Shown in pieces: positions 14,229 through 30,236 of a stretch of DNA of 48,832 nucleotides. This DNA comes from an uncultured Candidatus Saccharibacteria bacterium (lineage in GTDB: Bacteria; Patescibacteriota; Minisyncoccia; Minisyncoccales; Staskawiczbacteraceae). The notes beneath the pieces are model-generated. The model was not told where the DNA came from. It saw only the letters and a program-made list of their open reading frames with translations, and did not search any database. Position 1 is the first letter of the stretch, and every line of letters begins with the position of its first letter. The DNA is taken from NCBI GenBank assembly GCA_964567205.1, contig CAZMKW010000001.1:1-48832 (forward strand), given 5' to 3'. The position numbers and the translations under genes were made by a program.

Positions 14229-15488
14229 CTACTCGTAACGCAATGCCTCAATCGGATCCAGTTTTGCCGCAGACCTTGCCGGAAAGACTCCAAACGATAT
14301 TCCTATAGTTCCTGACACACCAACCGCAATTATTATTGCATACAAAGGTACGGTAAATACCCATTCTAATCCGGCATATTTTGCGATTATAGATACTATC
14401 CAGCTTAATACTGCTCCTAATAAAATTCCTAAAACTCCGCCCAGTACCGTAACTAAGATAGATTCCACTAAAAATTCCGTCATGATGTTTGATTTTGTAG
14501 CTCCCAGGGCTTTTTTTAAACCTATTTCAGCTGTTCTTTCAGTAACAATTACATACATAATATTCATAATTCCAACCCCACCCACAATCAGAGAAATCGA
14601 AGCAATCGCGATTAATAAAATTGTTATCCCATTAAAAATTGTGTTAAATGTATCCATCGCTTCAGCTTGAGTTGTAACTGTAAAATCATCTTTTGCTGGA
14701 TCTGTAATGTTGTGAAGCCTTCTCATGGTTTCACGAATCGACTCGGCGGTAGCGTCTCCCAAATTTATGTTTTTCAATTGTACCACGCCGACGGTTATAT
14801 AATTTATGCCGAGCATTTTCTTCTGCGCTGTAACAAGGGGCATATATAAACCGTCATCAATCCCGCCCGTTGCCATAGAGCCCTGAGGATTATAAACCCC
14901 TATAACCTGAAAATTTGACGTACCAATTCTGATTAACTTCCCCAAAGGATCGTCTTGTCCAAATAAATCATCCGATAATGCGCTCCCCAAAATCACCACC
15001 TGATTAGCGCCAATATCTTCGGCCTGTGTAAAAAATCTTCCCACCTTAAGGGTGTGTTTATCAATATTAAACATCTCCGCTCCGGCGGCATAATAAATAA
15101 CATTCTTTGCATTATCTCGGTAGCTAACCACCGCAAGACCCGTAGCTATTCCATATGCTCCGGAAACATTTGATAATTTTTTTATTTCATCAAGATTAGA
15201 AGTTTTAAAAGAAGTAATTTGCACTATAGAGGTCGCCCTACTAAAGTCGGCGGAGGTGGCATTATTATTAGCCCTGTTTTTAGTGGTTGGTGGCACTCTA
15301 GTTTCTATAAAAAGAGTGTCTGTTCCCCACGAAGAAAGCTGGGCATCAATCAAACTTCTAAATCCGGCTCCTGCCGATAAAACCACTATGACCGTAGCAA
15401 TCCCTATAACAATTCCCAGCGTAGTCAAAACCGTACGAACAGGATTCGCTGTCAGGGCCTTCATAGATTGTTTATAAGCCTTAAACAT
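14229..15488 (-). CDS. ABC transporter permease, MacB/FtsX type (paralogue B)
   Basis: Starts MFKAYKQSMKALTANPVRTVLTTLGIVIGIA, with a large extracytoplasmic loop and a C-terminal FtsX 3-TM bundle ending PIEALRYE. The start was moved to the internal ATG; the extension overlaps the repeat element. Confidence 0.85.
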   Translation of the reverse strand: MFKAYKQSMKALTANPVRTVLTTLGIVIGIATVIVVLSAGAGFRSLIDAQLSSWGTDTLFIETRVPPTTKNRANNNATSADFSRATSIVQITSFKTSNLDEIKKLSNVSGAYGIATGLAVVSYRDNAKNVIYYAAGAEMFNIDKHTLKVGRFFTQAEDIGANQVVILGSALSDDLFGQDDPLGKLIRIGTSNFQVIGVYNPQGSMATGGIDDGLYMPLVTAQKKMLGINYITVGVVQLKNINLGDATAESIRETMRRLHNITDPAKDDFTVTTQAEAMDTFNTIFNGITILLIAIASISLIVGGVGIMNIMYVIVTERTAEIGLKKALGATKSNIMTEFLVESILVTVLGGVLGILLGAVLSWIVSIIAKYAGLEWVFTVPLYAIIIAVGVSGTIGISFGVFPARSAAKLDPIEALRYE

Positions 15489-15505
15489 GATGATTATAAT
15501 TATCG

Positions 15506-15568
15506 TCACCCCGCCCTCTAAGCTCTGCGTTCGTGTTCTACATAACACCTACAGCATAGAGGGCGGGG
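15506..15568. repeat. Inverted-repeat element, copy A (13-bp perfect arms ACCCCGCCCTCTA / TAGAGGGCGGGGT, 36-nt interior)
   Basis: Read directly. The termini CACCCCGCCCTCTAAGCT and GCATAGAGGGCGGGGT are identical to those of copy B at 44208-44308. Confidence 0.9.
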
Positions 15569-15588
15569 TAAGTCTCGCTATCGCTCGC

Positions 15589-16860
15589 TTATTCGTATCT
15601 TAACGCGTCGATAGGATTTAATTTTGAAGCCTTAAGCGCCGGGTATAAACCAAAGATAACTCCTGTTAAAATTGAAACTCCGATGGACAAAAGAATAGAC
15701 CAAATTGAAACTACAAACGCCCAGTCATAACCCAAATAGCGCATAAGCAAAAACATTAAATAAGAAATTAATGTGCCAATTATTATTCCAATAATTCCAC
15801 CAAGAAAAGTCAGCGTCCCCGCTTCTAATAAAAATTGATTTCTTATGGCGGAGTTTGTTGCGCCAACTGCCTTTCTTAAACCTATCTCCCTGGTTCTTTC
15901 AGCAACGGTTGCCATCATAATATTTAAAATACCAATCCCGCCGACAACTAAAGCTATTGCGGCCATAGCAGTTAAAAATAACCGCAAGGCATTTGTAATG
16001 GTGCTCAAAATATCAATTGCATCAGCGAGATTTCTAACAGTAAAATCAACATCCACATCGCTCTGAATATGATGCCTTTGTTTTAAAACATTTGTTATGT
16101 CAGCAATAGTTTGGTCGATATTATCTGGAGAATCAACTTTTATATCTATAGCACGCAAATAATGTATTCCTAAAAGCTGTTCCTGTCCTATTACTAGCGG
16201 TAGATACACTTGGTCATCCTGATCTATAAAAAGACTGCTCCCCTGTTTTGCCATAACTCCAACTATGCGCAAAGGAACTCCGCCAACTTCCGTTTGCGCC
16301 GAATTCCTTACCTTAATCACCTGCCCTATCGGATCAACGCCCGTATTCTCAAACAATTGCGAAGCCACGGCATTTCCGAGAACCGCCACGTTTGCATTCC
16401 CCTCTCCTTGCTGCTGGTCAAAAAATTGGCCAGATTGTATCGTAGTGTTTAAAACATCGGGATAATTATAATCAGTTCCGATAAAATTTGTATCAATCGT
16501 TTTGGCTCCCCACGTTACCGAGGCTGATCCCATAACTAAACCAATAACTGATTCTGCGTGCGGAACTTGGGACTTACTTTTTAGGGCATCCGCATCAGAA
16601 TTTACAAGAGTGGTTATAGTGATACCATATAACTGTGCCGGTGGCCCTTTTTCATTGCTTTTTCCCGGCTGAATACTTATTAAATTTGATCCCAGTTTGG
16701 TAATTTGACCTATAATCAAACTCTGTGCGCCAGCTCCCAAAGCAATTATAATAATCACTCCCGCAACTCCGATAACAATCCCCAAGATAGTCAAAAACGA
16801 CCTGCCCTTTCTGGCAAGCAAAGTTCTAAAAACTAATTTTATCGTTCCAATAAATTCCAT
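15589..16860 (-). CDS. ABC transporter permease, MacB/FtsX type (paralogue A)
   Basis: Same architecture as 14229..15488 and the same C-terminal PIDALRYE. Confidence 0.88.
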   Translation of the reverse strand: MEFIGTIKLVFRTLLARKGRSFLTILGIVIGVAGVIIIIALGAGAQSLIIGQITKLGSNLISIQPGKSNEKGPPAQLYGITITTLVNSDADALKSKSQVPHAESVIGLVMGSASVTWGAKTIDTNFIGTDYNYPDVLNTTIQSGQFFDQQQGEGNANVAVLGNAVASQLFENTGVDPIGQVIKVRNSAQTEVGGVPLRIVGVMAKQGSSLFIDQDDQVYLPLVIGQEQLLGIHYLRAIDIKVDSPDNIDQTIADITNVLKQRHHIQSDVDVDFTVRNLADAIDILSTITNALRLFLTAMAAIALVVGGIGILNIMMATVAERTREIGLRKAVGATNSAIRNQFLLEAGTLTFLGGIIGIIIGTLISYLMFLLMRYLGYDWAFVVSIWSILLSIGVSILTGVIFGLYPALKASKLNPIDALRYE

Positions 16861-16866
16861 TGGGTA

Positions 16867-16895
16867 TTGATAAGTTGAGTCAGCAGAGTTATATT
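16867..16895 (+). promoter_or_regulatory. Candidate promoter for 16950..17216
   Basis: TTGATA, 17-nt spacer, TATATT. Confidence 0.4.
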
Positions 16896-16949
16896 TAGAA
16901 TGTGTTATTTGACATTTGCCATCTTAACTCATTCAAAAGGAGCGTTGAA

Positions 16950-17216
16950 ATGAAAACTCCGATGGTCTTTATAGCGTTTATTATCACCCTCGTCGCGGGT
17001 TTGTGGCTTAAATTGGGCTTTCTAATTATGATAAGTCTCTCCGCCATCGTGCTCTGCGCACTTTTGGAATTACGGTCTCTGGCGACGCCCACACTTTACT
17101 GCCACGATTGTGGTAAAAAATGGAAGCGATCAAGGGTGGCAAAAGATAATATCGGCATGTTTCCAAGGTGGACATGTCCATGCGGAAAATCCCACCCACT
17201 TCCCGTAGATCGCTGA
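16950..17216 (+). CDS. Small two-TM protein with C-terminal zinc-ribbon-like motif, antisense-oriented inside the ABC exporter cluster
   Basis: The ATG is preceded by an AAAGGAG RBS. The 88-aa product has hydrophobic segments followed by CHDCG...CPCG. It is GC-richer than the flanks and has its own terminator. Confidence 0.55.
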   Translation: MKTPMVFIAFIITLVAGLWLKLGFLIMISLSAIVLCALLELRSLATPTLYCHDCGKKWKRSRVAKDNIGMFPRWTCPCGKSHPLPVDR

Positions 17217-17226
17217 TTCGATTATA

Positions 17227-17277
17227 AGCAGTTCGGATGTTTCTCTTATGAGAAATTTCTTCGGACTGCTTTTTTTT
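17227..17277 (+). terminator. Intrinsic terminator of 16950..17216
   Basis: Long interrupted hairpin (AGCAGTTCGGA...TCGGACTGCT with an inner TTTCTC/GAGAAA stem) followed by T8. Confidence 0.6.
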
Positions 17278-17284
17278 GCAAAAG

Positions 17285-18004
17285 TTATTTTACCAAATCT
17301 CCATCACCGGCCGCGATTGTTCTTTTTTCTACTTTTGCGTCCGAAACAATACTTCCATCTTTTATTTTAATAATTCTTTTGGCGTGGTTTGCGGTGTCAG
17401 TTTCGTGAGTAACTAAAATAATCGTATGTCCCTGATTATTCAATTTCTGTAAAATATGCATGATCGCATTTCCCGATTTTGAATCAAGATTTCCTGTTGG
17501 TTCGTCTGCAAAAATTACAGCAGGATTATTAACCAAAGCTCTTGCAATTGCGACTCTTTGTTTTTCTCCGCCAGAAATTTGATTTGTAAAATAATTTAAC
17601 CTATGCGAGAGACCTACAGATTCTAAAGCTTTTTCCGCTAACTTGTCGTAGTCCGCTTTTTTGCTGTAAATCAATGGAAGTCTTACGTTATCTAAAACAG
17701 TTGTCCTAGCCAATAAATTAAACGATTGAAAAACAAAACCTACTCTTTCATTGCGCAACATCGCAAGATAAGTGTCATCAAAATTTTTTGTATCCTTACC
17801 CTCAAATTCATATGTTCCCGATGTTGGTCTGTCTAAAAAACTTAAAATATGCATCAATGTTGACTTGCCAGATCCCGATGGTCCCATAATTGCAACAAAT
17901 TCACCTTCGTGTATTTGAAAACTTACATCATGTAAAACATGCGTGACGACTTCGTCATTTACATAATTCTTTTTCAAATTTGATACTTTGATAAGTTCTG
18001 CCAT
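17285..18004 (-). CDS. ABC transporter ATP-binding protein (MacB/LolD type)
   Basis: Walker [10 protein letters not shown], signature [15 protein letters not shown], Walker [12 protein letters not shown]. Confidence 0.93.
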
Positions 18005-18006
18005 TT

Positions 18007-19491
18007 CTATTTCATATACACGATAATTTTTTGGCCTTCTCTTAATCCAGATAATATTTCAACCAATCCCCCGTCTGCTTGAAGCCCCGTCTGAACTTCG
18101 ACTTCGTGATACGTGAGTTTTTTTACATCATCAACAACCCTCACATATTTTTTATTATTTTTATTAATAACCGCGGTTGAAGGAACCGCCAACGCGTCAT
18201 TTTTTTCCGAAGACAAAATAGTCATATTCGCGGTCATACCAGGTTTTACTTCAGGAATATTTTCTAAACTTCCCTTAACTTCATAGTTAACTACACCAGA
18301 AACAACGGTAGACGCTGGATTAATACTTAAAACTTTTCCTGCAAAATGTTTATCCGGGCCCAAGGCGTCAAAAGTATAATCAACGGACTGCCCCACTTGA
18401 AGAGAAGCAATATTTGCCTCACTCACATTTGCTTCTGTGTGAAGGTTATTTACATCCTGCAAAACTAAAACCTCTTTCGAGGGCGCCGCCAATTCACCCA
18501 CTTTAATATCAACTTGGGTTATTGTTCCAGATGAGGGAGCTATAATAATTAAATTATTTAAAACTGCTCTTGCCGCATCAACTTGCGCTTGTGCAAAATC
18601 TATATCCTCCTGCCTTGGTGAAGATTGTTTGGCAGACAAATTGTGCTGAGCCGTTTGAAGTGCAACTTTATATAAGGACAGACTGCTTTGCAAAGTATTA
18701 ATACCACTTAGCGCAGAACTGACTGCGGATTTTTGAGAATCCAAAGCAGATTTGTCGGCAACAGTAACGCTATCCTTATAAGTATCAGTTCCAGTTTGAT
18801 CGCGAATAATTTGCAATGATGCTAAAACGCTCGTTAGAGAATTTACAGAATTAGAGACTGCCGTATTTATGGCATCAGTATTGCCTAAATGGGTTATGCC
18901 ATTTTTCACAACAGCCAAATTATTACTTATATTGTTAACATTATCGTGAACCGGACTCCAAGATGAATCTGCCGACAGAAAATAAGTATCTTGAATTATT
19001 TTTACCACTGCCTCGGCGTTAAAAATTGCCGTATATCCGTCATTTAATGCATTAAAAACTCCGTTAACCGCATTATCCAAATTAACTTGTGCTAAAGATT
19101 CTGCATCTTGTAATGATTGAATATCATTTTGAGTTGCGCCATTAATTAATTTATCGTAATTTGCTTGCGACTGGTTTAGATTTGCAAGAGCAGAAGTTAT
19201 ATCAAGCGAAGCTAAAGTCTGACCCTGATAAACACTGTCCCCCTCTTTTACGGAAATCTTTTTTACAACCCCAGTGTTTTGAAAACTTAAAATAAGATCC
19301 GTCCCACTTACAACTTGTCCGGTTGAAAGAACTGTTTGTTGCAAATTTTGTTTTGTTACTACACCTGTTTGGATAGATGTATTTACCTTTGGTTTAAAAA
19401 TAAAATATCCGATCATAACAACAACAACTAAAATTGCTATAATCCAGATGTTTCTTTTTCGTTTTAAAAATTTTGGTATTTTTATTTTCAT
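18007..19491 (-). CDS. HlyD/MacA-family periplasmic adaptor-like protein
   Basis: N-terminal TM segment, lipoyl-like segments (VKEGDSVYQGQTLASLD), a long coiled-coil middle and a C-terminal beta-barrel pattern. It lies 2 nt upstream of the ATPase gene. Confidence 0.78.
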   Translation of the reverse strand: MKIKIPKFLKRKRNIWIIAILVVVVMIGYFIFKPKVNTSIQTGVVTKQNLQQTVLSTGQVVSGTDLILSFQNTGVVKKISVKEGDSVYQGQTLASLDITSALANLNQSQANYDKLINGATQNDIQSLQDAESLAQVNLDNAVNGVFNALNDGYTAIFNAEAVVKIIQDTYFLSADSSWSPVHDNVNNISNNLAVVKNGITHLGNTDAINTAVSNSVNSLTSVLASLQIIRDQTGTDTYKDSVTVADKSALDSQKSAVSSALSGINTLQSSLSLYKVALQTAQHNLSAKQSSPRQEDIDFAQAQVDAARAVLNNLIIIAPSSGTITQVDIKVGELAAPSKEVLVLQDVNNLHTEANVSEANIASLQVGQSVDYTFDALGPDKHFAGKVLSINPASTVVSGVVNYEVKGSLENIPEVKPGMTANMTILSSEKNDALAVPSTAVINKNNKKYVRVVDDVKKLTYHEVEVQTGLQADGGLVEILSGLREGQKIIVYMK

Positions 19492-19504: not shown

Positions 19505-20197
19505 TTAATTGCTGAAAGTTTTCGCTTTATTTAGCCATTTTGCAAATTGGCAATCGGAATTGTGTGGCGGTGGCGCTGGGGTTTTTAAACATTCAACCGC
19601 ATCTTTAAAAATTTCGTAAATATCAGATGGGTTGGTATCTATTTCCACAACTTCTTTTCTGAATGGTAGGCGGTCAATGAATCCCCTGCTCTTATCTACT
19701 ATATAGAAGGCCAAATATCCTTTGTGTGCTGTTTTATATCCATTTTTCTCCATTAAAAATGTGTACGTATCTAACTGTAATTGAAATCTGTCATATACTT
19801 TTGCTGCCGTGCTTCCGGTTGATTTATAATCTAACGGCGCTATTTTTCCATTTTCAAATTCTAAAACATCGTCAACCACTCCAAACAATGTCGCCTTAAG
19901 ATCCGCATCAAAATATCTTATTCCCGCCAGATTGTTTCTCCACTGATTCAGTAATTTTTGATTTCCAAATAAACGAGCTTTTATTTTTTTATCTTCAAGC
20001 AAGGGTGGTTGTATCTTCTTTGAACGATACGTATCAAATTCTTCTTTTAATAAACTGTCTACGGCAGAATTTAAAGCATATGGATATGGCGGTGGTCTTT
20101 TTATTCCCAAATTTTTATCTAGCCAAAAACAATGCGGACATTCTAGAAATAAATTTAACGAATTCGGTGATAATTGTATTGCTTTTCCATTTGCCAT
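19505..20197 (-). CDS. PD-(D/E)XK nuclease family protein (Cas4/RecB-like, Cys-containing)
   Basis: N-terminal CPHC, a D...DYK core candidate (APLDYKSTG), and C-terminal Cys residues. Family-level guess only. Confidence 0.55.
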   Translation of the reverse strand: MANGKAIQLSPNSLNLFLECPHCFWLDKNLGIKRPPPYPYALNSAVDSLLKEEFDTYRSKKIQPPLLEDKKIKARLFGNQKLLNQWRNNLAGIRYFDADLKATLFGVVDDVLEFENGKIAPLDYKSTGSTAAKVYDRFQLQLDTYTFLMEKNGYKTAHKGYLAFYIVDKSRGFIDRLPFRKEVVEIDTNPSDIYEIFKDAVECLKTPAPPPHNSDCQFAKWLNKAKTFSN

Positions 20198-20227
20198 ATT
20201 TATTATATATTACCAAAAATTTCAAAC

Positions 20228-20255
20228 AAAAAAAAGCTCTCACCGGAGTGAGAGC
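20228..20255 (-). terminator. Intrinsic terminator of the PurC-PurE fusion gene
   Basis: Minus strand reads GCTCTCAC-TCCG-GTGAGAGC followed by T8. Confidence 0.75.
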
Positions 20256-20278
20256 ATAGAACTTATTAAGCCAATCTC

Positions 20279-21778
20279 TTAGCACAGAGAAATGCCAAGC
20301 TGAACCGGCTTTTCCTTACGCGGTTTTGGCGGAGGAAGCTCGCCGTAAGCGACCCTATCCAGCAACTTGGACAATCCGGCGGGACCCGTGTATGCGCCAC
20401 CGGCTATCTCGTCGATAATCACGGGTTGGCCGGGAATTTCCTCAATGGAAAGCTGAGCGGCAAGCAAAGACTTGCTCCCCGCATCGCCCAGAGCAACAGC
20501 AGCAACCGGCACGTTCACGCCATAGTAATGCGCCCACGAATCCAGTACTCCTGCCAAGGCTAAGGCTTTCCCGCCAATACAGATTGCGATGTCAAAGCCG
20601 GTCAGTCCTTCTTCTGCTAAAATCCTAATCTCCTCGGGATTGCGGTGGCAACTCATAACGTGAGCTTTAATGCTAGGTATTTTCCTACTGCACATGCCAT
20701 CACCGCCGAGAATCTTCCTAACTTCCGGAAGGTCGGTGTCACTGCCCAAAACGAGCAGAACATTTGGCACCTTCCGAACAGGATAATCCACGTGCATAAC
20801 CTCGCGGAGGTAATGCTCAATGGTATGGCCGGTCAGTCGCCAGAAAATATAGCGGTAAGCCTGAGTCGTCCGGGCTATAAGATCCTCGGGCATTACAAAT
20901 GAATGGACAATGTCCACATGCTCGGGAATCTCCGGCAACAACTCTTTGACACCGTGCGTCTCCTGGTACAGCTTCATCGCAGCCGATAACCACTTACGTA
21001 CCGGATCTTTGTCAAAAGATCCTGGCGCCCGACGGCCGATTGCCGGCTTTCGGCTAAGCAACCATTCGACGTAGGGCCAGAAACGTGACGAATCCGGCGT
21101 AAGAACTTCATCGACGAGAGTGCCATCTTCGGCAAACTCAAACTTAGTATCAGGTTGTTCAATTCCGTGCTTCCGCGCATAATCGCGTCCGATTTGGTAA
21201 ATCTGCATTGCCCGCATGCTCGCAACCGGATACTGCAGAATAACTTCCTCAGCCGGCACGTTTTCGTCATGGCCTTCTTCGGCCTTGGTGGTTGGTGTGA
21301 GAATCGGACTTGGCAGCTCATCGCCGTCCTGCAAGCCTGGTGGCAACCTATGCCCACAGACTTCCCCGGTTTTTTGGTATTTTGGAACGGCCGTACCGGC
21401 CAAGCACCCGCGCACCACGAACTCGTACTCGGTCGTCCTCAATTCTTTAACCACCATAGCACGAGCTTGAAGATCGATGTTGCCCCGATGCTCCGGTGGC
21501 AAAAACTCGTCTATACCTGAGCCGTAGGCCACCATGTGATGCGGAATGCCGTACTCATCCATCATCTGAAGCCAGAAGACAGTCATGGCGCTCAATACAA
21601 TCCCTTTGTGCTTGACAAGCGCATTCACAACAAAATCTTTGGCGCTTATGCCGTCAGTGGCAACAACAAGCCTGTTGCCAACAGGCAAGCGGTTGCTATC
21701 GCGGACCTTTCCGCGATTCAGAAGTTTCAAGCCGGGCAGCACTGGCCAACCGGCTCTTACGGGAGATAACTTTGGCAT
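20279..21778 (-). CDS. Fusion protein: SAICAR synthetase (PurC) domain plus PurE/AIR-carboxylase-fold domain (PAICS-like order)
   Basis: PurC motifs: GKVRD, ATDGISAKDF, EFVVRGCLAGT, TPTTKAEEGHDENV, DTKFEF, TPDSSRFW. C-terminal PurE-like motifs: LVLGSDTDL, SCHRNPEE, ICIGGKALALAGV. The start was chosen at the ATG with an AAGGAG RBS (M20 of the ORF). The gene is strongly GC-richer than its neighbours. Confidence 0.8.
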   Translation of the reverse strand: MPKLSPVRAGWPVLPGLKLLNRGKVRDSNRLPVGNRLVVATDGISAKDFVVNALVKHKGIVLSAMTVFWLQMMDEYGIPHHMVAYGSGIDEFLPPEHRGNIDLQARAMVVKELRTTEYEFVVRGCLAGTAVPKYQKTGEVCGHRLPPGLQDGDELPSPILTPTTKAEEGHDENVPAEEVILQYPVASMRAMQIYQIGRDYARKHGIEQPDTKFEFAEDGTLVDEVLTPDSSRFWPYVEWLLSRKPAIGRRAPGSFDKDPVRKWLSAAMKLYQETHGVKELLPEIPEHVDIVHSFVMPEDLIARTTQAYRYIFWRLTGHTIEHYLREVMHVDYPVRKVPNVLLVLGSDTDLPEVRKILGGDGMCSRKIPSIKAHVMSCHRNPEEIRILAEEGLTGFDIAICIGGKALALAGVLDSWAHYYGVNVPVAAVALGDAGSKSLLAAQLSIEEIPGQPVIIDEIAGGAYTGPAGLSKLLDRVAYGELPPPKPRKEKPVQLGISLC

Positions 21779-21856
21779 TTCTCGCTCCTTTCCTTCTATG
21801 TCGGTGACAATGAACTGCAAATTTCTTGCTTTCACGCGAAAGCACTTACTGTTCTA

Positions 21857-21885
21857 AAATTACACAATATTATGCTTTTTGTCAA
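21857..21885 (-). promoter_or_regulatory. Sigma-70-like promoter of the PurC-PurE cassette
   Basis: Minus strand reads TTGACA (21885-21880), a 17-nt spacer, then TAATTT (21862-21857). Confidence 0.55.
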
Positions 21886-21887
21886 AC

Positions 21888-22673
21888 TTAAAAACCAAGC
21901 TCAATCCAGCGCCATTTTCCGTATTGGTCTTTATTAAATTTATAATTTGAGTATTTATTTTTTAAAATTATTTCTTTTACGACCGCCTTCTGATCGGGAC
22001 TGAATTCCATAAAGATTTTACCGTCCGGATTCAAATATTTTTTGGCTTCTTTCAGAAACTTTTTGATATAAAAAAGCCCATCGGCTCCTCCGAATAATGC
22101 CTGACTTGGCTCAAATTTTAAAACTGATTTTTGGATTTTGTTTTTTTGCGTAGTTGGAATATATGGTGGGTTTGCGAAAATATAATCATATTTATTTCTA
22201 ATATTTTTGAAAACGTCGGATTTTATTATTTTACTTCGCCAGGCCGAAGCCTCTGGCGAAGGCTGGTTTAATTTGTAGTTTATTTTTATCTGAGCGATTG
22301 CGTTTTTGTCGTTGTCCGCCATGTCGCATAATAAACCTGGCATATTTTTTAATAACGCAATTCCAATACATCCTGACCCACAAAAAATATCCAAAGCCCT
22401 TATTTTTCTCCTGTCGTGAAAAGTGCGCGATAGCGCACTTTTCACGACAGGTCTTACAATGGACTTTATCGCCTGGTCTACCCAAAATTCTGTTTCCGGC
22501 CGCGGTATCAGCGGTCTTTTTGATAAATCAATTTTACACGACAAAAACTCAGTAAATCCGATTACATAATCTAACGGCTCAGCACCGTTGAGCCGTTTAA
22601 TATCTTTATAAAATTGTTTTGTCGGCCTGCCAAAGTATTTTTCCTTTAACAGCCACCCTAATTCTTTTTCCAT
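21888..22673 (-). CDS. prmC: Release factor glutamine N5-methyltransferase (PrmC/HemK)
   Basis: Contains DIFCGSGCIG (SAM motif) and NPPY (FANPPYIP). The start is at the internal ATG overlapping the upstream stop (TAATG). It carries a 14-codon palindromic insert. Confidence 0.88.
   Translation of the reverse strand: MEKELGWLLKEKYFGRPTKQFYKDIKRLNGAEPLDYVIGFTEFLSCKIDLSKRPLIPRPETEFWVDQAIKSIVRPVVKSALSRTFHDRRKIRALDIFCGSGCIGIALLKNMPGLLCDMADNDKNAIAQIKINYKLNQPSPEASAWRSKIIKSDVFKNIRNKYDYIFANPPYIPTTQKNKIQKSVLKFEPSQALFGGADGLFYIKKFLKEAKKYLNPDGKIFMEFSPDQKAVVKEIILKNKYSNYKFNKDQYGKWRWIELGF
22410..22451. repeat. Perfect 42-bp palindrome (19-bp arms, 4-nt centre) inside the prmC coding frame
   Basis: CCTGTCGTGAAAAGTGCGC-GATA-GCGCACTTTTCACGACAGG read directly. 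It spans exactly codons 75-88 (PVVKSALSRTFHDR). Confidence 0.95.
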
Positions 22674-22912
22674 TATGTTAATCCTTCCTGATATTCTACC
22701 CCATTTATCACCGGAAACTTCGGGTAAATTTTTTGTACTCTGCCGACTTGACCATCTTCGAGCCGAACTTTGCACCCTCGCGGATGAAAACTGTCGCCCG
22801 TTAAAATATCCTTCACTTTTCCATGAGTTAATTTGCCGGTGGGTTGATCCGCCTTTAAAACAATGTCCACTTCCCCGCCAATTTTTATATTTACTCTAGT
22901 CTGACCGTTCAT
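22673..22912 (-). CDS. YwbE/DUF2196-family small protein
   Basis: 79 aa with the pattern DIVLKADQPTGKLTHGKVKDILT...HPRGCKVRLEDGQVGRVQKI, typical of YwbE-like proteins. Confidence 0.7.
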   Translation of the reverse strand: MNGQTRVNIKIGGEVDIVLKADQPTGKLTHGKVKDILTGDSFHPRGCKVRLEDGQVGRVQKIYPKFPVINGVEYQEGLT

Positions 22913-22921
22913 GTTTTATTT

Positions 22922-23581
22922 TTACGGGCACGACGCAAATTCACAGTTTGAACCAACGCGTCCTACATAAGATCCGTCCGGACAAAGCTCTGCGTCTTGA
23001 GGGCACGCTCTATTAAATTCTGAATTATCAGCTAGCACTACCGGAATCTCAAGAGCGTCGTCGTTTTCAGGAAGCCCCGACGGATTATCTTTACGCAATA
23101 TTAATGAGCCCTTATTGCTGTATGCATTTTTGTCTACCTCAAACTTTATCGTCGCCCCAAATGGCACAAAATCTTCTGTCATCCAATCGCTCTCGGCAGT
23201 GGCAATCCCCTGTCCGATTATTTTACCATCCCAATCAACTACAACAACCGGGAGGCTGCCTTCAAAAAACCATGTTCCCCGCGCTTCTCCGAGAACAGTT
23301 AAGGGACTTTGTATATTTTGATTTGGGCGCGGAATATTAACGCGAATAAGATCTGTTTTTTCCTGCTCGTTACCAATATCTTCAATAAAAGTTTTTTCTC
23401 CTTCTCTACATTGTCGCGGGTAGCTTTCCATAACAGGATTTCCCGCCGCAACACACTCATCGAAGTTTAAAACTTGATGTTGCTTAATTTCTTCACTAGG
23501 TTTTGGCCACGCAACAACTCCGGCCACAACAATCGCTATAACTATTAATATAAATATATAAATTATTATTTTTTTATTCAT
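22922..23581 (-). CDS. Membrane-anchored protein with Gmad2-like immunoglobulin-like domain
   Basis: N-terminal TM segment. SPLTVLGEARGTWFFEGSLPVVVVDWDGKIIGQG...FVPF resembles the Gmad2 domain pattern. Confidence 0.6.
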   Translation of the reverse strand: MNKKIIIYIFILIVIAIVVAGVVAWPKPSEEIKQHQVLNFDECVAAGNPVMESYPRQCREGEKTFIEDIGNEQEKTDLIRVNIPRPNQNIQSPLTVLGEARGTWFFEGSLPVVVVDWDGKIIGQGIATAESDWMTEDFVPFGATIKFEVDKNAYSNKGSLILRKDNPSGLPENDDALEIPVVLADNSEFNRACPQDAELCPDGSYVGRVGSNCEFASCP

Positions 23582-23975
23582 AAATTTTACAATTTTTTTG
23601 TTTTACAGTTTTAAAAATCCCCACAAGCAACGGAAGCATAAATGTGACGGTGTAATAAATGTAAACATCTAATTTATAATACCCACCAACGGGCTTAAAT
23701 AATAAAACTAAAAATAAATAATCAAATACAATAGCTATCACAGTCCAGGCAATTGCTATCTTTAAATAATAAATAATCCCTCCACCCGTTTCGCCTTCGG
23801 CCGGGTTTATTTTTTTTATTAAAACCCAAAGAGTAATTAAAATACCAATCGGCGCAATCGCCCATCCAATTAAATTCGCGGGCATTACCATAAAAAATAT
23901 TATGCCCAAAACATACCCAACAATCCAAAGCCCAATTCCCCACCCTAACGAATCTTTTGAAAATTTATTGTCCAT
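23574..23975 (-). CDS. Hypothetical integral membrane protein
   Basis: 133 aa with about four hydrophobic helices. It overlaps the downstream gene by 8 nt. Confidence 0.55.
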   Translation of the reverse strand: MDNKFSKDSLGWGIGLWIVGYVLGIIFFMVMPANLIGWAIAPIGILITLWVLIKKINPAEGETGGGIIYYLKIAIAWTVIAIVFDYLFLVLLFKPVGGYYKLDVYIYYTVTFMLPLLVGIFKTVKQKNCKIYE

Positions 23976-23983
23976 AAATTTTT

Positions 23984-24568
23984 TTACTTTTTTTCGAGGA
24001 TATTAATGCCAAAGTTTTTTAACTCGTTAGATAACGGAAGCATAGGAATCCCAACAATATTAAAATAATCTCCTTCGATTTTTTCTATAAACACGCCTCC
24101 TCGATGTTGCATAGCGTAAGATCCGGCTTTATCTAACGGCTCACCCAAAGCTATATAGTCGTCTATATCTTTTTCTGGAATATTTGTAACAAAAACTTTA
24201 CTCTCCACCGATTTTAAAACCTGTTTTCCTGTTTCAGTATCAATTATGGTAAATCCGGTTATAACAGAATGAGCTTTTCCGCTAAGTTTTTGGAGCATAA
24301 TTTTAGCGTGCTCTTTTGATTTTGGCTTTCCCATAATTTCATTACCAAGAACACAAAAAGTATCAGCGGCAATAATGATTGCATTATCGTGCCTTTGCGC
24401 TACGTCTTTTGCTTTTCCCAAAGATAAAAACTCCGCTAGTTTATTTGGTTCCATTTCTAGCGTCATGTCTTCCTTATAATTACTTGGGTCTATCTCAAAA
24501 ACTAAACCCATTTGAGTTAACAGGGCTTTCCTCCCCGGCGACGCTGACGCTAAAACAATTTTTTTCAT
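23984..24568 (-). CDS. maf: Maf-like nucleoside triphosphate pyrophosphatase
   Basis: Starts MKKIVLASASPGRKALL, and has the KAGSYA-type motif (DKAGSYAMQ). Confidence 0.9.
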   Translation of the reverse strand: MKKIVLASASPGRKALLTQMGLVFEIDPSNYKEDMTLEMEPNKLAEFLSLGKAKDVAQRHDNAIIIAADTFCVLGNEIMGKPKSKEHAKIMLQKLSGKAHSVITGFTIIDTETGKQVLKSVESKVFVTNIPEKDIDDYIALGEPLDKAGSYAMQHRGGVFIEKIEGDYFNIVGIPMLPLSNELKNFGINILEKK

Positions 24569-24582
24569 AATTAATTTTAGAA

Positions 24583-25572
24583 TTAGTGTTTTACTATTTC
24601 CAATTTCACTTTTCCATTTTCTGCTTCTAAGCTAACCTCTCCTCCAACCGGAAAAGTAACCATCGGACTTGTATGTCCAAAATCAACGCCCGCTATTACC
24701 GGTAAATTATCTAACTCCTTCTTTGTTTTGATAATTTTAATTAAAATGTCATTAGGTATTTCACTTTTATTTTGGAATCTTCCAATTATTATTCCTTTCA
24801 CGTTTTCAAATCCGGGCTGGTGAATTACAGACTGAAAATCCCTATCAAAAGTGACTGCGTTAGACATTTCATCATCCTCCAAAAAAAGAATCTTATTCTT
24901 GGATAACTCCGGGAAATATTCTGTTCCTTGCAATAAGTTTAATGTGCAAAGGTTCGCGCCAAGTATTGTGCCAGATGCCCTGCCTTCATTTATTACCAGC
25001 CAGCCATCATTTTTTATTAGTTTTCTGTTGTCCTGATTTTTATACCAAGCATCATCGCTCCATTGTTCGCTTGGCTTAATTTCAAAAGGTTCACCTGAAA
25101 GCAAGCATTTTTTAAAATATTCTAATGTGTAGTCAAAATACAACTCCTGCCCAAAAGTTGAGTAATGTGGACCAGAATAAGAAACTAATCCTGTTTTGGC
25201 GAATATCGCATTATTTAGGGCCGTTATATCGGAAAAACCGCATAGAATCTTAGGATTATTTTTAATTAAATCCCAGTCCAAATATCTTAAAAGCTGATTA
25301 CTATTAAAGCCTCCTATCACTGTTAAAATCGCTTTTACATTTTTGTCGGAAAAGGCATTATGAATATCCTCAATCCTTGATTTTATACTTGAAGAAACGA
25401 ATTCGTCACTTTCCTCAATGTGTTTACCAAAACTTAATTTTAGTCCCATTTCAGCAAAACGCTTGTTGGCTATATCTCTCGACTCTTTCGAAATTATCGA
25501 CATAGAACGAGACGGGGCAATTATTCTTACCTCATCCCCAATTTTTAATTTTGCCGGATATATTTTTTCCAT
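24583..25572 (-). CDS. LD-carboxypeptidase (S66 family, LdcA/MccF-like)
   Basis: Contains IIAPS, the nucleophile motif GFSDITAL, and the C-terminal FGH. Confidence 0.85.
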   Translation of the reverse strand: MEKIYPAKLKIGDEVRIIAPSRSMSIISKESRDIANKRFAEMGLKLSFGKHIEESDEFVSSSIKSRIEDIHNAFSDKNVKAILTVIGGFNSNQLLRYLDWDLIKNNPKILCGFSDITALNNAIFAKTGLVSYSGPHYSTFGQELYFDYTLEYFKKCLLSGEPFEIKPSEQWSDDAWYKNQDNRKLIKNDGWLVINEGRASGTILGANLCTLNLLQGTEYFPELSKNKILFLEDDEMSNAVTFDRDFQSVIHQPGFENVKGIIIGRFQNKSEIPNDILIKIIKTKKELDNLPVIAGVDFGHTSPMVTFPVGGEVSLEAENGKVKLEIVKH

Positions 25573-25610
25573 AACTTGGTTATTTTTTAAAACTTTGAAA
25601 ACTTATTTAA

Positions 25611-26162
25611 CTAAGATAACTTTTTAACAAACACAGCGGGATTTTCTATAAAACTTAAGTAGGTTTCCCTTAATAATTTTGCGTCGTCTAAGGCGTTATG
25701 TATTTTAAATTTTTTATAATCTATGCCGATTTTTTCAAAAAACCCGTTTTTGTTACCAGAATAATAAACTTCCGGATCTGCGCCCAACATAAAAAGCACT
25801 GTAGCAAAATCAATTGAAACAACATTAAATATGTCTTTATTAATACCGACAGACCTTTGCATTTTTTGCCAATAAACAACATCGTCCTGATTAATATACC
25901 CAACAATGTGTGGCTTTCCTTCGCCAACAAATTGCTTAACCATTTTTACAGCCTCTTTTTTACTAACCTTATTGCCTTTCAAAAATGGTAAAACATTTTT
26001 TTTAACCCAATCACTACACTCGCCCCTATAATCTAATTCCAAATACAATTCTTCGCCATTAGTTTTAACAAGCGCAATAGAAATTAACTCTGCCTTGTTT
26101 GGATCCAGGCCAGAAAACTCTGTGTCAAAGAATATTATATTATTTGAAAAAGGCTTCATCAA
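25611..26162 (-). CDS. DEDDh-type 3'-5' exonuclease domain protein
   Basis: Exo I FFDTEFSGLD and Exo III HNALDDA motifs. Confidence 0.7.
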   Translation of the reverse strand: MMKPFSNNIIFFDTEFSGLDPNKAELISIALVKTNGEELYLELDYRGECSDWVKKNVLPFLKGNKVSKKEAVKMVKQFVGEGKPHIVGYINQDDVVYWQKMQRSVGINKDIFNVVSIDFATVLFMLGADPEVYYSGNKNGFFEKIGIDYKKFKIHNALDDAKLLRETYLSFIENPAVFVKKLS

Positions 26163-26166
26163 GATT

Positions 26167-26430
26167 TTATTTTTTAAAATTTTTCTGCCAAAGTTTTTTA
26201 AATAATGGCATTGTCAAAGTTGAGAGCAAAAAGGCAACTGCCGGAACGATAGCGTTTAACCAAGGATTCGAAACTTTTATTGCATTCAAATAAATCCCTA
26301 TCGCCAAATACGTAAAAAGAATCAGAAGCCCACGCCGAGCATAGCTCGTCTCCCATTTTTTATCCATTTCAACGCGCTCATTCCTCTCCTTTATTAAATT
26401 AACTTCTTTCTCTAATTCCTGTAGCTCCAT
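26167..26430 (-). CDS. Hypothetical small membrane protein
   Basis: 87 aa with a charged N-terminal helix followed by two hydrophobic segments. It ends 5 nt upstream of the start of the exonuclease gene. Confidence 0.5.
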   Translation of the reverse strand: MELQELEKEVNLIKERNERVEMDKKWETSYARRGLLILFTYLAIGIYLNAIKVSNPWLNAIVPAVAFLLSTLTMPLFKKLWQKNFKK

Positions 26431-26447
26431 AATTTTATTTTATTATC

Positions 26448-26493
26448 TTAACTTTATCCCTAAAAAAGGATATTTTCAATACGAAATCCTCCC
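26448..26493 (-). promoter_or_regulatory. Conserved promoter-like module, copy 1 (TTGAAA-17-TAAAGT on the minus strand)
   Basis: About 45 nt nearly identical to 28702-28746. The -35 element is at 26479-26474 and the -10 at 26456-26451. Confidence 0.45.
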
Positions 26494-26619
26494 ACACCGG
26501 CACAAAAGGGCAAAAAAAAGCTACACACGGATCCGAATTGTGGACTCTATAAACCCAGGGTTATCTTCAAAATCCAGTTGTGACTCAATCCCTTTATCTT
26601 CCCTCCCATAGCCTTCGTG

Positions 26620-26645
26620 CCCTGCGTTAACTCGTAGGGTTTTTT
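26620..26645 (+). terminator. Plus-strand intrinsic-terminator-like hairpin with no annotated plus-strand gene upstream
   Basis: CCCTGCG-TTAACT-CGTAGGG (one G-U pair) followed by T6. On the minus strand the pair becomes a mismatch and no U tract follows. Confidence 0.5.
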
Positions 26646-26650
26646 ATTTA

Positions 26651-26679
26651 TTGGGCGGGAAAAAGAAAAATGATATAAT
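26651..26679 (+). promoter_or_regulatory. Promoter of the Pif1-like helicase, positioned for a leaderless mRNA
   Basis: TTGGGC, 17-nt spacer, TG-n-TATAAT (26674-26679). The ATG at 26686 starts 7 nt after the -10 element. Confidence 0.5.
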
Positions 26680-26685
26680 GTCCTC

Positions 26686-28086
26686 ATGAAACAGAAAGAG
26701 GCTCTCGACATTTTAAAGTCAGGGTATAATACTTTTTTAACGGGACCGCCAGGGTCCGGAAAAACTTTTTTATTAAACGAATACGTTAAATATTTAAAGA
26801 AAAATAATGTGGCGGTTTCTGTTACCGCCAGTACTGGAATTGCAGCTACGCACATGGGCGGAACAACTCTGCATTCATGGTCTGGGTTGGGAATAAGAGA
26901 CAAGATTGACGAAACCGAAGCCAAAAAAATATGTGAAAAAGGATATTTGCGAAAACGCATTAAAAATACAAGCGTTTTAATTATAGATGAAATTTCTATG
27001 ATAAAGCCTTCGCAGTTTGAGGCGGTAAATTTGATTTGCCAGTATATAAAAAGGGTTGCACGCCCTTTTGGTGGAATACAGGTTGTGTGCTCGGGAGATT
27101 TTTTCCAACTTCCTCCGGTTTACAAACCCTCTTCCCCCGACCAGCAACAAAAACTTTTCGCGCCAGATGCCGGAATAAAATTTGTTAATGAATCTAGTTT
27201 GTGGAAACAGATGGGTATAAAAATATGCTATTTAGATGAACAGCACAGAACAAAAGATAAAAAACTCCATAAAATTTTAAATCATATAAGGGACAACGAG
27301 GCGCAAAAATCGAAGGACTTACTATTTGGAGAAGGGATAAACCCCACTTCAGACCCAAAGGGTACCCCGCTCCGCGGGGCGAGTAAATTCTTTACTCGGC
27401 TTTACACTCACAACATTGATGTAGACTCAATTAATTATTCTGAATTAGATAAAATAAAAAGCAAAGAATATTATTACCAGATGACTTCCAGGGGAAACGA
27501 AATGGTTGCTGATATTTTAAAAAAAACTTGTTTGGCTCCCGAAAAACTAACTTTAAAAAAGGGGGCTGAAGTGATGTTTATAAAAAATAATTTTGAAGCA
27601 GGATATGTAAACGGCACACAAGGAAAAGTTGTTGACTTTGTTGCCGCCGACTTACCGGTTATAGAAACTCAAGACGGCAAAAAAATAACAGTTAAGTTTG
27701 CTGATTGGACAATTGAAGAGCCTCTCGAAGGAACTCGGGGCAGAGAAAATTCTGTTGTTGCTGGCATTTCACAAATACCCTTGCGTTTAGCTTGGGCAAT
27801 TACTGTACATAAATCTCAAGGAATGAATTTAGATTCAGCTGAAATGGACCTTTCTAAATGTTTTTTGGAAGGAATGGGATATGTGGCGCTTTCAAGATTA
27901 AAATCTCTTAAGGGCTTGCGATTAATGGGAATAAATAATTTAGCTTTTTGCGTAAACAAAAAAGCACTAGAAATAGATAAAACCTTCAAAAAACTATCTA
28001 AAATACATACAGCCGAACTAAAAAAAATTGGCGCCGCGGCCGTCTCAAAACGTCAAAAATTATTTCTTAAATATCTAGGTAGCTAA
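26686..28086 (+). CDS. Pif1/RecD-family (SF1B) DNA helicase
   Basis: Walker A GPPGSGKTF, LIIDEISMI, GDFFQLPPV, and C-terminal VHKSQG. Confidence 0.85.
   Translation: MKQKEALDILKSGYNTFLTGPPGSGKTFLLNEYVKYLKKNNVAVSVTASTGIAATHMGGTTLHSWSGLGIRDKIDETEAKKICEKGYLRKRIKNTSVLIIDEISMIKPSQFEAVNLICQYIKRVARPFGGIQVVCSGDFFQLPPVYKPSSPDQQQKLFAPDAGIKFVNESSLWKQMGIKICYLDEQHRTKDKKLHKILNHIRDNEAQKSKDLLFGEGINPTSDPKGTPLRGASKFFTRLYTHNIDVDSINYSELDKIKSKEYYYQMTSRGNEMVADILKKTCLAPEKLTLKKGAEVMFIKNNFEAGYVNGTQGKVVDFVAADLPVIETQDGKKITVKFADWTIEEPLEGTRGRENSVVAGISQIPLRLAWAITVHKSQGMNLDSAEMDLSKCFLEGMGYVALSRLKSLKGLRLMGINNLAFCVNKKALEIDKTFKKLSKIHTAELKKIGAAAVSKRQKLFLKYLGS
27352..27398. repeat. GC-rich segment inside the helicase gene: a 17-mer shared with 48810-48826 plus two adjacent short hairpins
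   Basis: GACCCAAAGGGTACCCC (27352-27368), CCCCGC-TCC-GCGGGG (27365-27379), and CGAGTAAA-TTC-TTTACTCG (27380-27398). Confidence 0.8.
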
Positions 28087-28094
28087 CGGATTTT

Positions 28095-28652
28095 TTATTT
28101 GCTTTCGGACAAAAGAACCGGATAGCCTTTGTTGATTTGGCAATTGATTACGTCTTTGATCCCAAGGTTTTCAAGAAAATTAATGCATGCTGTCCTTGCT
28201 TCTGCCGTAGTTTTAAAATCTCCTTTTGCCTCGGCTTCAACAAAAGACCCCAATCCCCTAACCTCATCTAAAGCAACCTCTATACTACCGCACATCCAAT
28301 ATTCTCTTTGTTTATCAATAGTTATTACTTTTTTAAAATCCAAAAAACCTAATATTTTTTTAAATTCTTCGGGGTTGGAAATTTCTGTTTCGTATTCTTC
28401 GGCGCACTCTTGCTCACCGTTGGCTTTTTTGTTTATAGATAAATCATATTCAAAAACCACCTTGTCGGGGTTTGTCCTAATTCTTAACCATTCTGTTGGA
28501 TGAGGTTTTTGATTGAAAAAATCCCTGTGGATGGGAACATAATAATCATCTATCTGTCTTATAGATTTTATTAACTTCCCACGAGTCGAAACCTTTCTTC
28601 TGATCTCTTCCAGGTCATCCACTTTTACTTTTACTTCAACTTCAATATTCAT
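28095..28652 (-). CDS. CYTH-domain protein (class IV adenylate cyclase / triphosphatase family)
   Basis: N-terminal EVEVKVKV (ExExK) and later EVALDEVRGLGSFVEAE. Confidence 0.78.
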   Translation of the reverse strand: MNIEVEVKVKVDDLEEIRRKVSTRGKLIKSIRQIDDYYVPIHRDFFNQKPHPTEWLRIRTNPDKVVFEYDLSINKKANGEQECAEEYETEISNPEEFKKILGFLDFKKVITIDKQREYWMCGSIEVALDEVRGLGSFVEAEAKGDFKTTAEARTACINFLENLGIKDVINCQINKGYPVLLSESK

Positions 28653-28701
28653 GTTTTCTTACTCGCCTAAATTTTTTCAAAATTTTGACGGGTTAATTAA
28701 T

Positions 28702-28746
28702 TTAACTTTATTCCTAAAAGAAAACATTTTCAATACCGAATTCCCC
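28702..28746 (-). promoter_or_regulatory. Conserved promoter-like module, copy 2
   Basis: Minus strand reads TTGAAA (28733-28728), a 17-nt spacer, then TAAAGT (28710-28705). It aligns with 26448-26493 with few differences. Confidence 0.45.
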
Positions 28747-28762
28747 TGTCCGAACGCGACCT

Positions 28763-28801
28763 AAACGCCCCATACTAGGCCTTGCCTAGTATGGGGCGTT
28801 T
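28763..28801. other. Perfect 17-18-bp GC-containing hairpin
   Basis: AAACGCCCCATACTAGG(C)-CTT-(G)CCTAGTATGGGGCGTTT. T-rich sequence follows only on the plus strand. Confidence 0.85.
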
Positions 28802-28813
28802 ATTTATTTAAAT

Positions 28814-28840
28814 AAAAAAACCTCAAGACGTTGCTCGAGG
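28814..28840 (-). terminator. Intrinsic terminator downstream of 28866..29099
   Basis: Minus strand reads CCTCGAG-CAACGT-CTTGAGG (one mismatch) followed by T7. Confidence 0.6.
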
Positions 28841-28865
28841 CGTTGATATCTTGGGATGATATCTA

Positions 28866-29099: not shown

Positions 29100-29135
29100 A
29101 ACTCAAGCTAATTTCAGATTACTGCTCTATATTTT

Positions 29136-30226: not shown

Positions 30227-30236
30227 CATTAAACGA

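Follow-up and report, generated by a model that had tools for sequence, protein, structure and literature searches.

The fusion of PurC and PurE, two enzymes of de novo purine synthesis, has been treated as eukaryotic, with the bacterial PurC and PurE regarded as separate proteins (PMC3261824, PMC10912719). In animals the fused protein is PAICS (2h31, 6yb8 and 4ja0), a single chain in which an N-terminal PurC is followed by a C-terminal PurE fold. Here we describe a bacterial gene with this domain order, located in a stretch of 48,832 nucleotides (hereafter the window; contig CAZMKW010000001.1, assembly GCA_964567205.1) from an uncultured Candidatus Saccharibacteria bacterium of the Patescibacteria, or Candidate Phyla Radiation (CPR). 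A literature search for a bacterial PurC-PurE fusion found no paper, although its coverage was incomplete and it is weak evidence that the fusion is undescribed. With a probability of about 75%, we interpret the gene as a bifunctional de novo purine enzyme that is typical of one CPR lineage, has a single fusion origin and is inherited at a conserved site.

PurE proteins that depart from the standard two classes have been described before. Class-I-like PurE without PurK is documented in anaerobes of high-CO2 environments and some PurE proteins fit neither class, examples being methanogen PurE and PurE-PurE', PurE of the Desulfurococcales, and halobacterial PurE with a lysine in the 70s loop (PMC3261824). 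The CPR domain can be likened to these proteins by description, in that it fits neither class cleanly, has a basic residue in the 70s loop and has no purK nearby; the habitat is probably also shared, being anoxic and rich in CO2, where non-enzymatic formation of N5-carboxyaminoimidazole ribonucleotide (N5-CAIR) would be possible. Unlike the CPR protein, the PurK-free PurE proteins (PMC3261824) are archaeal and unfused to PurC.

The gene and its two domains lie in the window as follows, as read from the list of open reading frames (ORFs) and the sequence.

20279..21778, minus strand: PurC-PurE fusion coding sequence, 499 amino acids plus stop codon
20804..21778, minus strand: PurC (SAICAR synthetase) domain, residues ~1-325, of the long yeast/actinobacterial type
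20282..20767, minus strand: PurE-fold domain, residues ~338-499

In the proposed pathway, the C-terminal PurE-fold domain would convert 5-aminoimidazole ribonucleotide (AIR) to carboxyaminoimidazole ribonucleotide (CAIR), either via N5-CAIR or directly with CO2, and the N-terminal SAICAR synthetase would combine CAIR with aspartate and ATP to give phosphoribosylaminoimidazole-succinocarboxamide (SAICAR), which PurB and PurH would carry on to inosine monophosphate. The fusion arose once within the CPR, independently of animal PAICS, and is best read as passed down by inheritance at one conserved position of the chromosome, where relatives have a variable set of nucleotide-synthesis genes; the remaining genes of the pathway are predicted to lie elsewhere in the genome.

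The PurC half

The N-terminal half matches Pfam SAICAR_synt (PF01259) at 161.6 bits against a cut-off of 20, spanning model positions 2-229 of 233. Together with the AIRC match of the C-terminal half, this bears out the sequence-only reading that a single ORF joins a full SAICAR synthetase to a C-terminal PurE fold, and every peptide motif which that reading quoted is found in the translation. Alignment to yeast SAICAR synthase (phmmer, E 3.7e-43) places GKVRD, TPTTKAE.GHDEN, DTKFEF and DEVLTPDSSRFW in register. The AlphaFold model of the whole protein, built with an alignment of 77 family members, has a pLDDT of 95.5 and a pTM of 0.93, and in a Foldseek comparison its N-terminal ~325 residues superpose with TM-scores of 0.83 with yeast 2cnq and 0.80 with M. 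abscessus 6yvq, at 31-36% identity.

The PurC half thus has the same fold and length class as the long-type SAICAR synthetases (S. cerevisiae Ade1, 1a48/2cnq; M. abscessus PurC, 6yvq), with which its ATP-, CAIR- and aspartate-site motifs align. It differs from them in scoring below the equivalog cut-off (for TIGR00081, 103.6 against 189.9), in having TDGIS where the yeast protein has TDRIS, and in the presence of a PurE domain directly after its C-terminal helices. On these profile scores and motifs, it is most simply placed as a divergent member of the SAICAR synthetase family.

The PurE half

The sequence-only reading left it to be checked whether the C-terminal half matches an AIRC model, and it does so: Pfam AIRC (PF00731) scores 39.6 bits with a cut-off of 30, and all of the 25 family members match. 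The motifs in the window protein are GSDTD, SCHRNP, GGKALALAG and AVALG, followed by a family-specific GELPPPKPR tail. In a search of PDB sequences with a profile built from 25 C-terminal halves, class I PurE proteins (N5-CAIR mutases) scored 43-57 bits (E 1e-14 to 1e-10), the class II PurE of T. denticola 25 bits, and human PAICS 17 bits. Modelled alone, the PurE domain has a pLDDT of 84.5, and its top 50 Foldseek matches are class I PurE in 50 of 50 cases. Both the profile search and the predicted fold point to class I as the closest relative of the CPR PurE domain, with the E. coli (1qcz/2ate), A. aceti (1u11) and T. maritima (1o4v) proteins as the best matches; some CPR members are 31-36% identical to the E. 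coli protein.

A gap-free map of the 25 family members onto E. coli PurE shows which residues are shared. G15, S16, D19, S43, H45 and R46 (E. coli numbering) are kept in 25/25 members and P48 in 23/25, so that class I PurE and the CPR domain have in common GSxSD, S43, H45, R46, P48, A73 and L76-P77-G78; at position 77 the window protein itself has alanine, as does Coxiella PurE (3trh). The differences from class I are His75 to Ala, Gly72 to Lys, Ala44 to Cys, Thr47 to Asn (in 25/25 members) and GVPV to GVALG, along with a different C-terminal tail, the fusion to PurC, the lack of a nearby PurK, and a score far below the TIGR01162 cut-off. A74 is replaced by Phe or Leu in all 25 members, and the 70s loop reads G-G-K-A-[FL]-A-L-P-G in the family compared to A-G-G-A-A-H-L-P-G in class I.

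The class II signatures in 2h31, 4ja0 and 3rg8 are SAHK, AGRSN[GA]L and CPP, and none is found in the family, which has H-R instead of H-K, no S-N and no C-P-P; it shares with class II only a basic residue at 72 and a residue other than His at 75. Judged by its residues, the PurE half therefore represents a third flavour of PurE, class-I-like overall, with a basic residue at 72 and no His75.

We also note that the cysteine immediately before the catalytic His (Cys377 in the 499-residue numbering; window 20648-20650) is invariant in 77/77 aligned members, at a position where PurE proteins of both classes have Ala. Its role could be structural, catalytic or redox-related.

Comparison with animal PAICS

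Animal PAICS and the CPR fusion both cover two consecutive steps that turn AIR into SAICAR, both lack an obvious PurK partner, and their PurC-to-PurE domain order agrees, as the sequence-only reading had pointed out. Its description of the gene as PAICS-like stands for this order and does not extend to the domains themselves. The PurE half of PAICS is class II (SAHK, AGRSNGLGP, CPP), whereas the CPR half is class-I-like (SCHRNP, GGKAxALPG), and the CPR PurC half is 36% identical to yeast PurC (TM-score 0.83) but only 15-16% identical to the PAICS N-terminal domain. Alignment of the whole chain to 6yb8, 4ja0 and 2h31 gives a root-mean-square deviation of 14-15 Å at 15-16% identity. Since the PurE class, the PurC affinity and the superposition all differ, the PAICS and CPR fusions are considered independent, and the best reading of the sequence comparisons is that the CPR protein is an analogue of PAICS by function, a convergent and CPR-specific PurC-PurE fusion.

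Distribution and origin of the fusion

More than 120 full-length two-domain relatives, at 45-64% identity, are found in a search of 5.8 billion proteins. All of the named relatives are Patescibacteria (Colwell-, Staskawicz- and Adlerbacteria, and Minisyncoccia), and the public databases label the fusion 'SAICAR synthase'. The closest homologs are P0002 (64%, on a 2.3-kb contig) and P0003 (62%, a syntenic ortholog), with nothing else above 64% among the 5.8 billion. A metagenome scan with the family motif [HD][VI][MIL]SCHRNP identifies 79 loci, 59 of them with a full-length fused gene and five with the PurE-like gene as a separate ORF adjoining purC. When 1.84 billion cluster representatives were searched exhaustively, only 50 matched at E<=1e-30, comprising fused proteins of ~500 amino acids and proteins of ~170 amino acids, some of which may be stand-alone genes and some fragments. 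Scanning a genome collection with the single protein gave no match, and a scan with the alignment was dominated by ordinary purC through the generic DExxTPDSSR pattern and provided no species-level taxonomy. No fusion was seen outside the CPR in these searches; one seeming two-domain match, in the betaproteobacterial metagenome-assembled genome (MAG) L046, is a plain 300-residue PurC.

When the PurC domains are placed in a tree together with 40 ordinary bacterial PurCs, 29 of 30 bootstraps unite the fused proteins in a single clade, which argues for one fusion event. An actinobacterial donor of the PurC half was considered and is unsupported (12/40 bootstraps, and identity of 0.41 versus 0.40). 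The window protein retains all of the invariant residues and has seven deviations at 133 near-invariant columns, where the family median is 4 and the maximum 20.

Some relatives carry the two domains apart. At the syntenic site of L095 (9051-10501) and L107 (9027-10501) there is a separate, foreign-type purC followed by a stand-alone PurE-like gene of the SCHRNP type, and in L126 (4319-5812) the two are likewise apart but in the opposite order. At all three loci the stand-alone PurE-like gene nests inside the fused clade and its PurC partner falls among ordinary bacterial PurCs, indicating a secondary split in which the N-terminal half was displaced by a foreign purC.

Genomic position

The fusion occupies a conserved site. 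Nine distinct loci with a full-length fusion, the window included, share the order methyltransferase (MTS), [purB], fusion, PD-(D/E)XK protein and efflux genes, in the same position and orientation, and two further loci carry this order with the gene split. The direct neighbours in the window are the following.

21888..22673, minus strand: MTS/HemK-type methyltransferase, upstream neighbour (Pfam MTS, 59 bits; NPPY motif; GC 0.36)
19505..20197, minus strand: PD-(D/E)XK protein, downstream neighbour (Pfam PDDEXK_1; GC 0.35)

The methyltransferase is located 5' of the fusion in 15 loci and the PD-(D/E)XK gene is adjacent to it in 17, with a median gap of 81 bp. The closest relatives on long contigs, L005/L006 (62% identity) and L007 (57%), have the fusion at the same site as the window, and their PD-(D/E)XK proteins (L005, L007) are 83-87% identical to that of the window. 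The shared order runs DUF2196 (in L005/L006), MTS, [purB], fusion, PD-(D/E)XK, YknX-ABC-FtsX, two small genes, DUF8128 and elongation factor P (EF-P). The same GC-rich site with identical neighbours is present in independent ENA, JGI and Logan assemblies, which excludes a chimeric assembly, the artefact that the sequence-only reading had allowed for.

Our argument for inheritance uses the correlation of distances together with synteny, not tree topology. Among nine syntenic genomes, identity of the fusion (0.47-0.65) correlates with identity of the PD-(D/E)XK protein (0.65-0.88) in a Mantel test (r=0.65, p=0.001), and the PurC and PurE halves co-vary in divergence (r=0.48, p=0.008). The window and L005 are sisters in the 9-taxon trees.

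The neighbours of the fusion in relatives include many genes of nucleotide synthesis. The commonest direct neighbour, present in 17 loci and separated from the fusion by a median of 153 bp, encodes a Lyase_1 protein of ~490 amino acids that scores highest with the purB model (244-255 bits). Genes for purH are near the fusion in six loci, purM in L001 and L091, and phosphoribosyl pyrophosphate (PRPP) synthetase in L001; a purN-like formyltransferase, a pyrB-like carbamoyltransferase, pyrF and guaA are also present in relatives. Conversion of AIR (or N5-CAIR) to CAIR and then SAICAR is the predicted activity, supported jointly by the retained PurE core, by the fold and motifs of the PurC half, and by the proximity of purB, purH and purM. 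At the syntenic site itself, purB is present in L005, L095, L106, L110, L118 and L122; the nucleotide-synthesis cluster there is variable, and in the window it is reduced furthest, to the fusion alone.

Three other features of the syntenic regions are described here. The L168 locus (4661-12789; ENA ERZ25039479 contig_60506) is syntenic and contains pyrB-like, guaA, MTS, purH, purB and the fusion (inverted); this contig has many fragmented genes, which are probably long-read frameshifts, and its last 3 kb, with Pth and SSB, rise to 0.49-0.60 GC and could be a mis-join. The MacB-type efflux module adjoining the fusion (YknX, ABC ATPase and FtsX permease; window 14229-19491) exists as two deeply divergent allele types, with the ABC proteins 82-88% identical within a type and ~44% between types. 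The window, L092, L106 and L110 have one type, and L005, L007, L090 and L122 the other; the split is discordant with the PD-(D/E)XK and fusion relationships, and suggests that the module has been replaced as a cassette by recombination. The window has tandem FtsX/MacB permease genes (14229-15548 and 15589-16860).

Upstream of the conserved block, the ~9 kb between L21/RmuC and the methyltransferase (window 22912-31900) is a variable region that is absent at this position from L007, where L21 lies almost directly before the methyltransferase. Its genes include those for Gmad2, a small membrane protein, Maf, an S66 peptidase, an RNase_T-like protein, a PIF1 helicase, a CYTH protein, a sigma-70 factor and WG-repeat proteins. 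The sigma-70 gene, with a GC of 0.454, is the second GC outlier of the locus.

Expression signals and gene content of the window

The reading frame of the fusion is longest at 20279..21835 (minus strand, GTG start, 518 amino acids), and the identical protein in the public collection, P0001, is called in this form. The ATG at 21778 is backed by the N-termini of 76 homologs (consensus MxxLSPxR; the protein begins MPKLSPVR) and by the AAGGAG before it, and the public GTG start sits 19 codons further 5' (21779-21835). The additional 19 residues are probably not translated. The expression signals are listed below.

21785..21790, minus strand: Shine-Dalgarno sequence AAGGAG, 6 nt 5' of the ATG, read from the sequence
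21857..21885, minus strand: putative promoter TTGACA-17 nt-TAATTT, read from the sequence
20228..20255, minus strand: intrinsic terminator with an 8-bp stem (five G-C pairs), a 4-nt loop and T8, from a terminator scan

The terminator hairpin (20255-20236) is GCTCTCAC-TCCG-GTGAGAGC, followed by T8. The putative promoter starts directly past the methyltransferase stop codon, with a perfect -35 (TTGACA, 21885-21880) and a -10 (TAATTT, 21862-21857) that matches TATAAT at three of six positions; a consensus promoter scan did not return the site. Of the signals that the sequence-only reading assigned to the gene, the AAGGAG ribosome-binding site and the strong terminator hold up, and the promoter, whose hexamers are present, is plausible but weak. 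Riboswitch control of the gene was rejected, as no Rfam family matches 20100-22100 at E<=1, which leaves the leader with neither a purine nor a ZTP riboswitch.

The remainder of the window was annotated with Pfam on ORFs of at least 100 amino acids that are not nested in a longer ORF of another frame, and consists of ordinary Patescibacteria housekeeping genes. There is a single tRNA (40633-40707).

GC content

The fusion gene is richer in GC than its surroundings, as the sequence-only reading observed, at 0.531 compared to 0.379 for the flanks and ~37% for the window; its GC at third codon positions (GC3) is 0.57, versus 0.27-0.37 in the adjacent genes. The excess is a feature of the family. 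Flanks of 4 kb or more were available for 35 loci, and in 34 of these the fusion is richer in GC than its flanks, with a mean excess over the loci of +0.086; the regression is gene GC = 0.256 + 0.605 x flank GC. It is also seen in purB (+0.071), purH (+0.098), purM and the purN-like, pyrB-like and pyrF genes, and not in those for ribosomal protein L21, EF-P, RmuC, PD-(D/E)XK or the methyltransferase. There are 22 strong GC outliers among 524 genes, 17 of which are the fusion or purB. In L168, five nucleotide-synthesis genes of 0.42-0.46 GC are interrupted by the methyltransferase at 0.31, so that the pattern follows the genes and is not a contiguous island.

At conserved four-fold sites, orthologs have the same third base at a frequency of 0.33, against 0.265 expected at saturation, yet GC at four-fold sites (GC4) is 0.5-0.7 in the fusion and purB compared to 0.2-0.45 in the PD-(D/E)XK and methyltransferase genes of the same genomes. 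Near-saturated sites that nevertheless have a high GC4 suggest a maintained state, not an incompletely ameliorated insertion, and the high GC looks like a long-standing trait of this family and of the neighbouring nucleotide-synthesis genes, not a sign of recent import. An adenine-sparing mRNA was also considered, as in the window third-position adenine (A3) is 0.16 and T3 is little changed, but it was rejected: the shift is nearly symmetric over 36 loci (A3 -0.078, T3 -0.050, C3 +0.080, G3 +0.048).

Strongly GC-enriched ORFs with no Pfam match lie near the fusion in L001 (5207-6319; 370 amino acids, 0.594 GC), L105 (16313-18333) and L162 (109-723), and may be more members of the GC-rich set or unrelated genes. 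A protein of ~400 amino acids is encoded just 5' of the methyltransferase in several syntenic loci, among them L092 (6796-8106), L106 (3215-4420) and L126 (1751-2962), with an average GC excess of +0.072; its sole match is a weak one to NCBIfam PRK06886 (cytosine-deaminase-like amidohydrolase), and it may be another nucleotide-metabolism gene of the site.

Alternative explanations

Several observations weigh against interpreting the gene as an inherited bifunctional purine enzyme. Both halves miss NCBIfam equivalog cut-offs, the PurE half with 29.7 bits for TIGR01162 (purE; cut-off 149.6) and the PurC half with 220.3 for PRK13961, its best model (cut-off 251). TDRIS is the canonical form of its PurC motif, and the family consensus is TDGIS where the yeast alignment has TDRIS. 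As regards the chemistry of the PurE half, A44 is replaced by Cys in 25/25 members, G72 by Lys in 21/25, and H75, the class I signature, by Ala in 21/25. A homolog of E. coli PurK was sought by blastp and tblastn and is absent from the window and, to a distance of 10 kb from the fusion, from ~85 CPR loci of up to 21 kb. Pfam annotation finds no further purine gene within the 48.8-kb window, in agreement with the sequence-only reading, and purB is missing from the syntenic site in the window, L007, L090, L092 and L107; the purB of the window organism was not found in assembly ERZ27248895, the five ENA candidates being from other samples. Within the fused clade the tree is star-like, with the nine syntenic loci grouped in 0 of 30 bootstraps, and exchange among close relatives at the fusion gene is conceivable.

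The missed purE and purC cut-offs, the invariant Cys377, Lys72, the Ala in place of His75, the conserved GELPPxKPR tail and the absence of a pathway partner from the window are all consistent with a repurposed enzyme, in which the PurE fold, by itself or together with the PurC-like ligase, has a substrate other than a purine, as in LarB, or carries out a different carboxylation and ligation. LarB, a carboxylase/hydrolase of nicotinic acid adenine dinucleotide (NaAD) in synthesis of the nickel-pincer cofactor, belongs to the same PurE/AIRC superfamily as the CPR domain, and the sequence-only reading offered a LarB-like enzyme as one of its two suggestions. This finds no support here: no LarB appears among NCBIfam models at E<=0.1, PDB chains at E<=1 or the top 50 Foldseek matches, and there are no lar genes near the CPR fusion, whose context is purine synthesis. 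No family member departs from the phosphate/ribose loop GSxSD or the catalytic S-x-H-R, and every one of the top structural matches is an N5-CAIR mutase. Among neighbouring genes, the fusion is most strongly associated with purB, whose product consumes SAICAR, and next with purH and purM, and the PurE-like gene still adjoins a purC where the two are separate. Repurposing is accordingly quite improbable. The fusion could instead be a remnant, its neighbouring genes and perhaps the whole pathway having been lost, and the gene itself on its way out or in a side role; this we regard as unlikely, if somewhat easier to entertain. The site has purB in six loci, and L168 has pyrB-like, guaA, purH and purB there, but the window, L007, L090, L092 and L107 have just the fusion; no other pur gene is present in the 48.8-kb window, and the window protein has seven deviations against a median of four. 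The ORF is nonetheless intact, keeps every invariant residue and has plausible expression signals, and fusions without purB show no relaxed constraint, being conserved to the same degree as those with it (2-7 and 1-11 deviations, respectively, in the 133 columns). PurB is also needed for the synthesis of adenosine monophosphate and is usually retained, and pur genes are scattered in many CPR genomes, such that a single site says little. Complete de novo purine synthesis is present in 32% of 399 CPR MAGs (PMC11608272) and is thus a known minority trait of the group; the other 68% are a point in favour of a remnant.

The other suggestion of the sequence-only reading, that the gene is an isolated cassette acquired horizontally, would make it a recently imported GC-rich two-step module from a GC-richer donor. 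In its favour are a GC content 15 points higher than that of the flanks and a promoter-like site, ribosome-binding site and terminator of the gene's own, and exchange is seen at the locus in relatives, in the foreign purC of L095 and L107 and the two efflux allele types. Against this, the fusion is the norm in its lineage and is placed and oriented identically in nine distinct loci from independent assemblies, the window among them; its closest homolog of known context is the syntenic ortholog P0003 (62%); and its divergence tracks that of the adjacent PDDEXK gene. All syntenic orthologs are GC-enriched despite near-saturated four-fold sites, and the GC-rich genes of L168 are broken by the low-GC methyltransferase and do not form one block. 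No donor can be named, the actinobacterial sister grouping having only 12/40 bootstraps, and we view a recent acquisition as very improbable indeed.

A broader proposal that builds on the inherited bifunctional enzyme has two parts, and we hold the two jointly as no better than tentative and on balance doubtful. The CPR PurE type, with SCHRNP and Lys72 but lacking His75, may form a third functional class in which carboxylation of AIR needs no PurK, and the fusion, purB, purH, purM, purN-like, guaA, pyrB-like and pyrF genes may be held 5-20 GC points above the genome by a continuing force. Candidate causes of the latter may be selection on composition, or biased gene conversion with frequent exchange of accessory genes, as opposed to recent transfer. 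If the PurE type is such a third class, the protein would be a true bacterial analogue of PAICS, convergent from a class-I-like ancestor.

Implications

For the window the outcome is mostly deflationary, as the gene belongs to the normal, inherited gene set of its lineage. Compositional outliers in CPR genomes are unreliable markers of recent transfer. What remains of interest is the unusual PurE chemistry and the GC excess, which extends across the pathway. The family as a whole represents a second, independent PurC-PurE fusion, in ultra-small bacteria and on a PurE domain outside both accepted classes. With the name 'SAICAR synthase' alone attached to it, pathway reconstructions may score purE as missing in CPR genomes that have the PurE half. 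The CPR PurE variant would also provide a natural experiment on the distinction between N5-CAIR mutase and AIR carboxylase.

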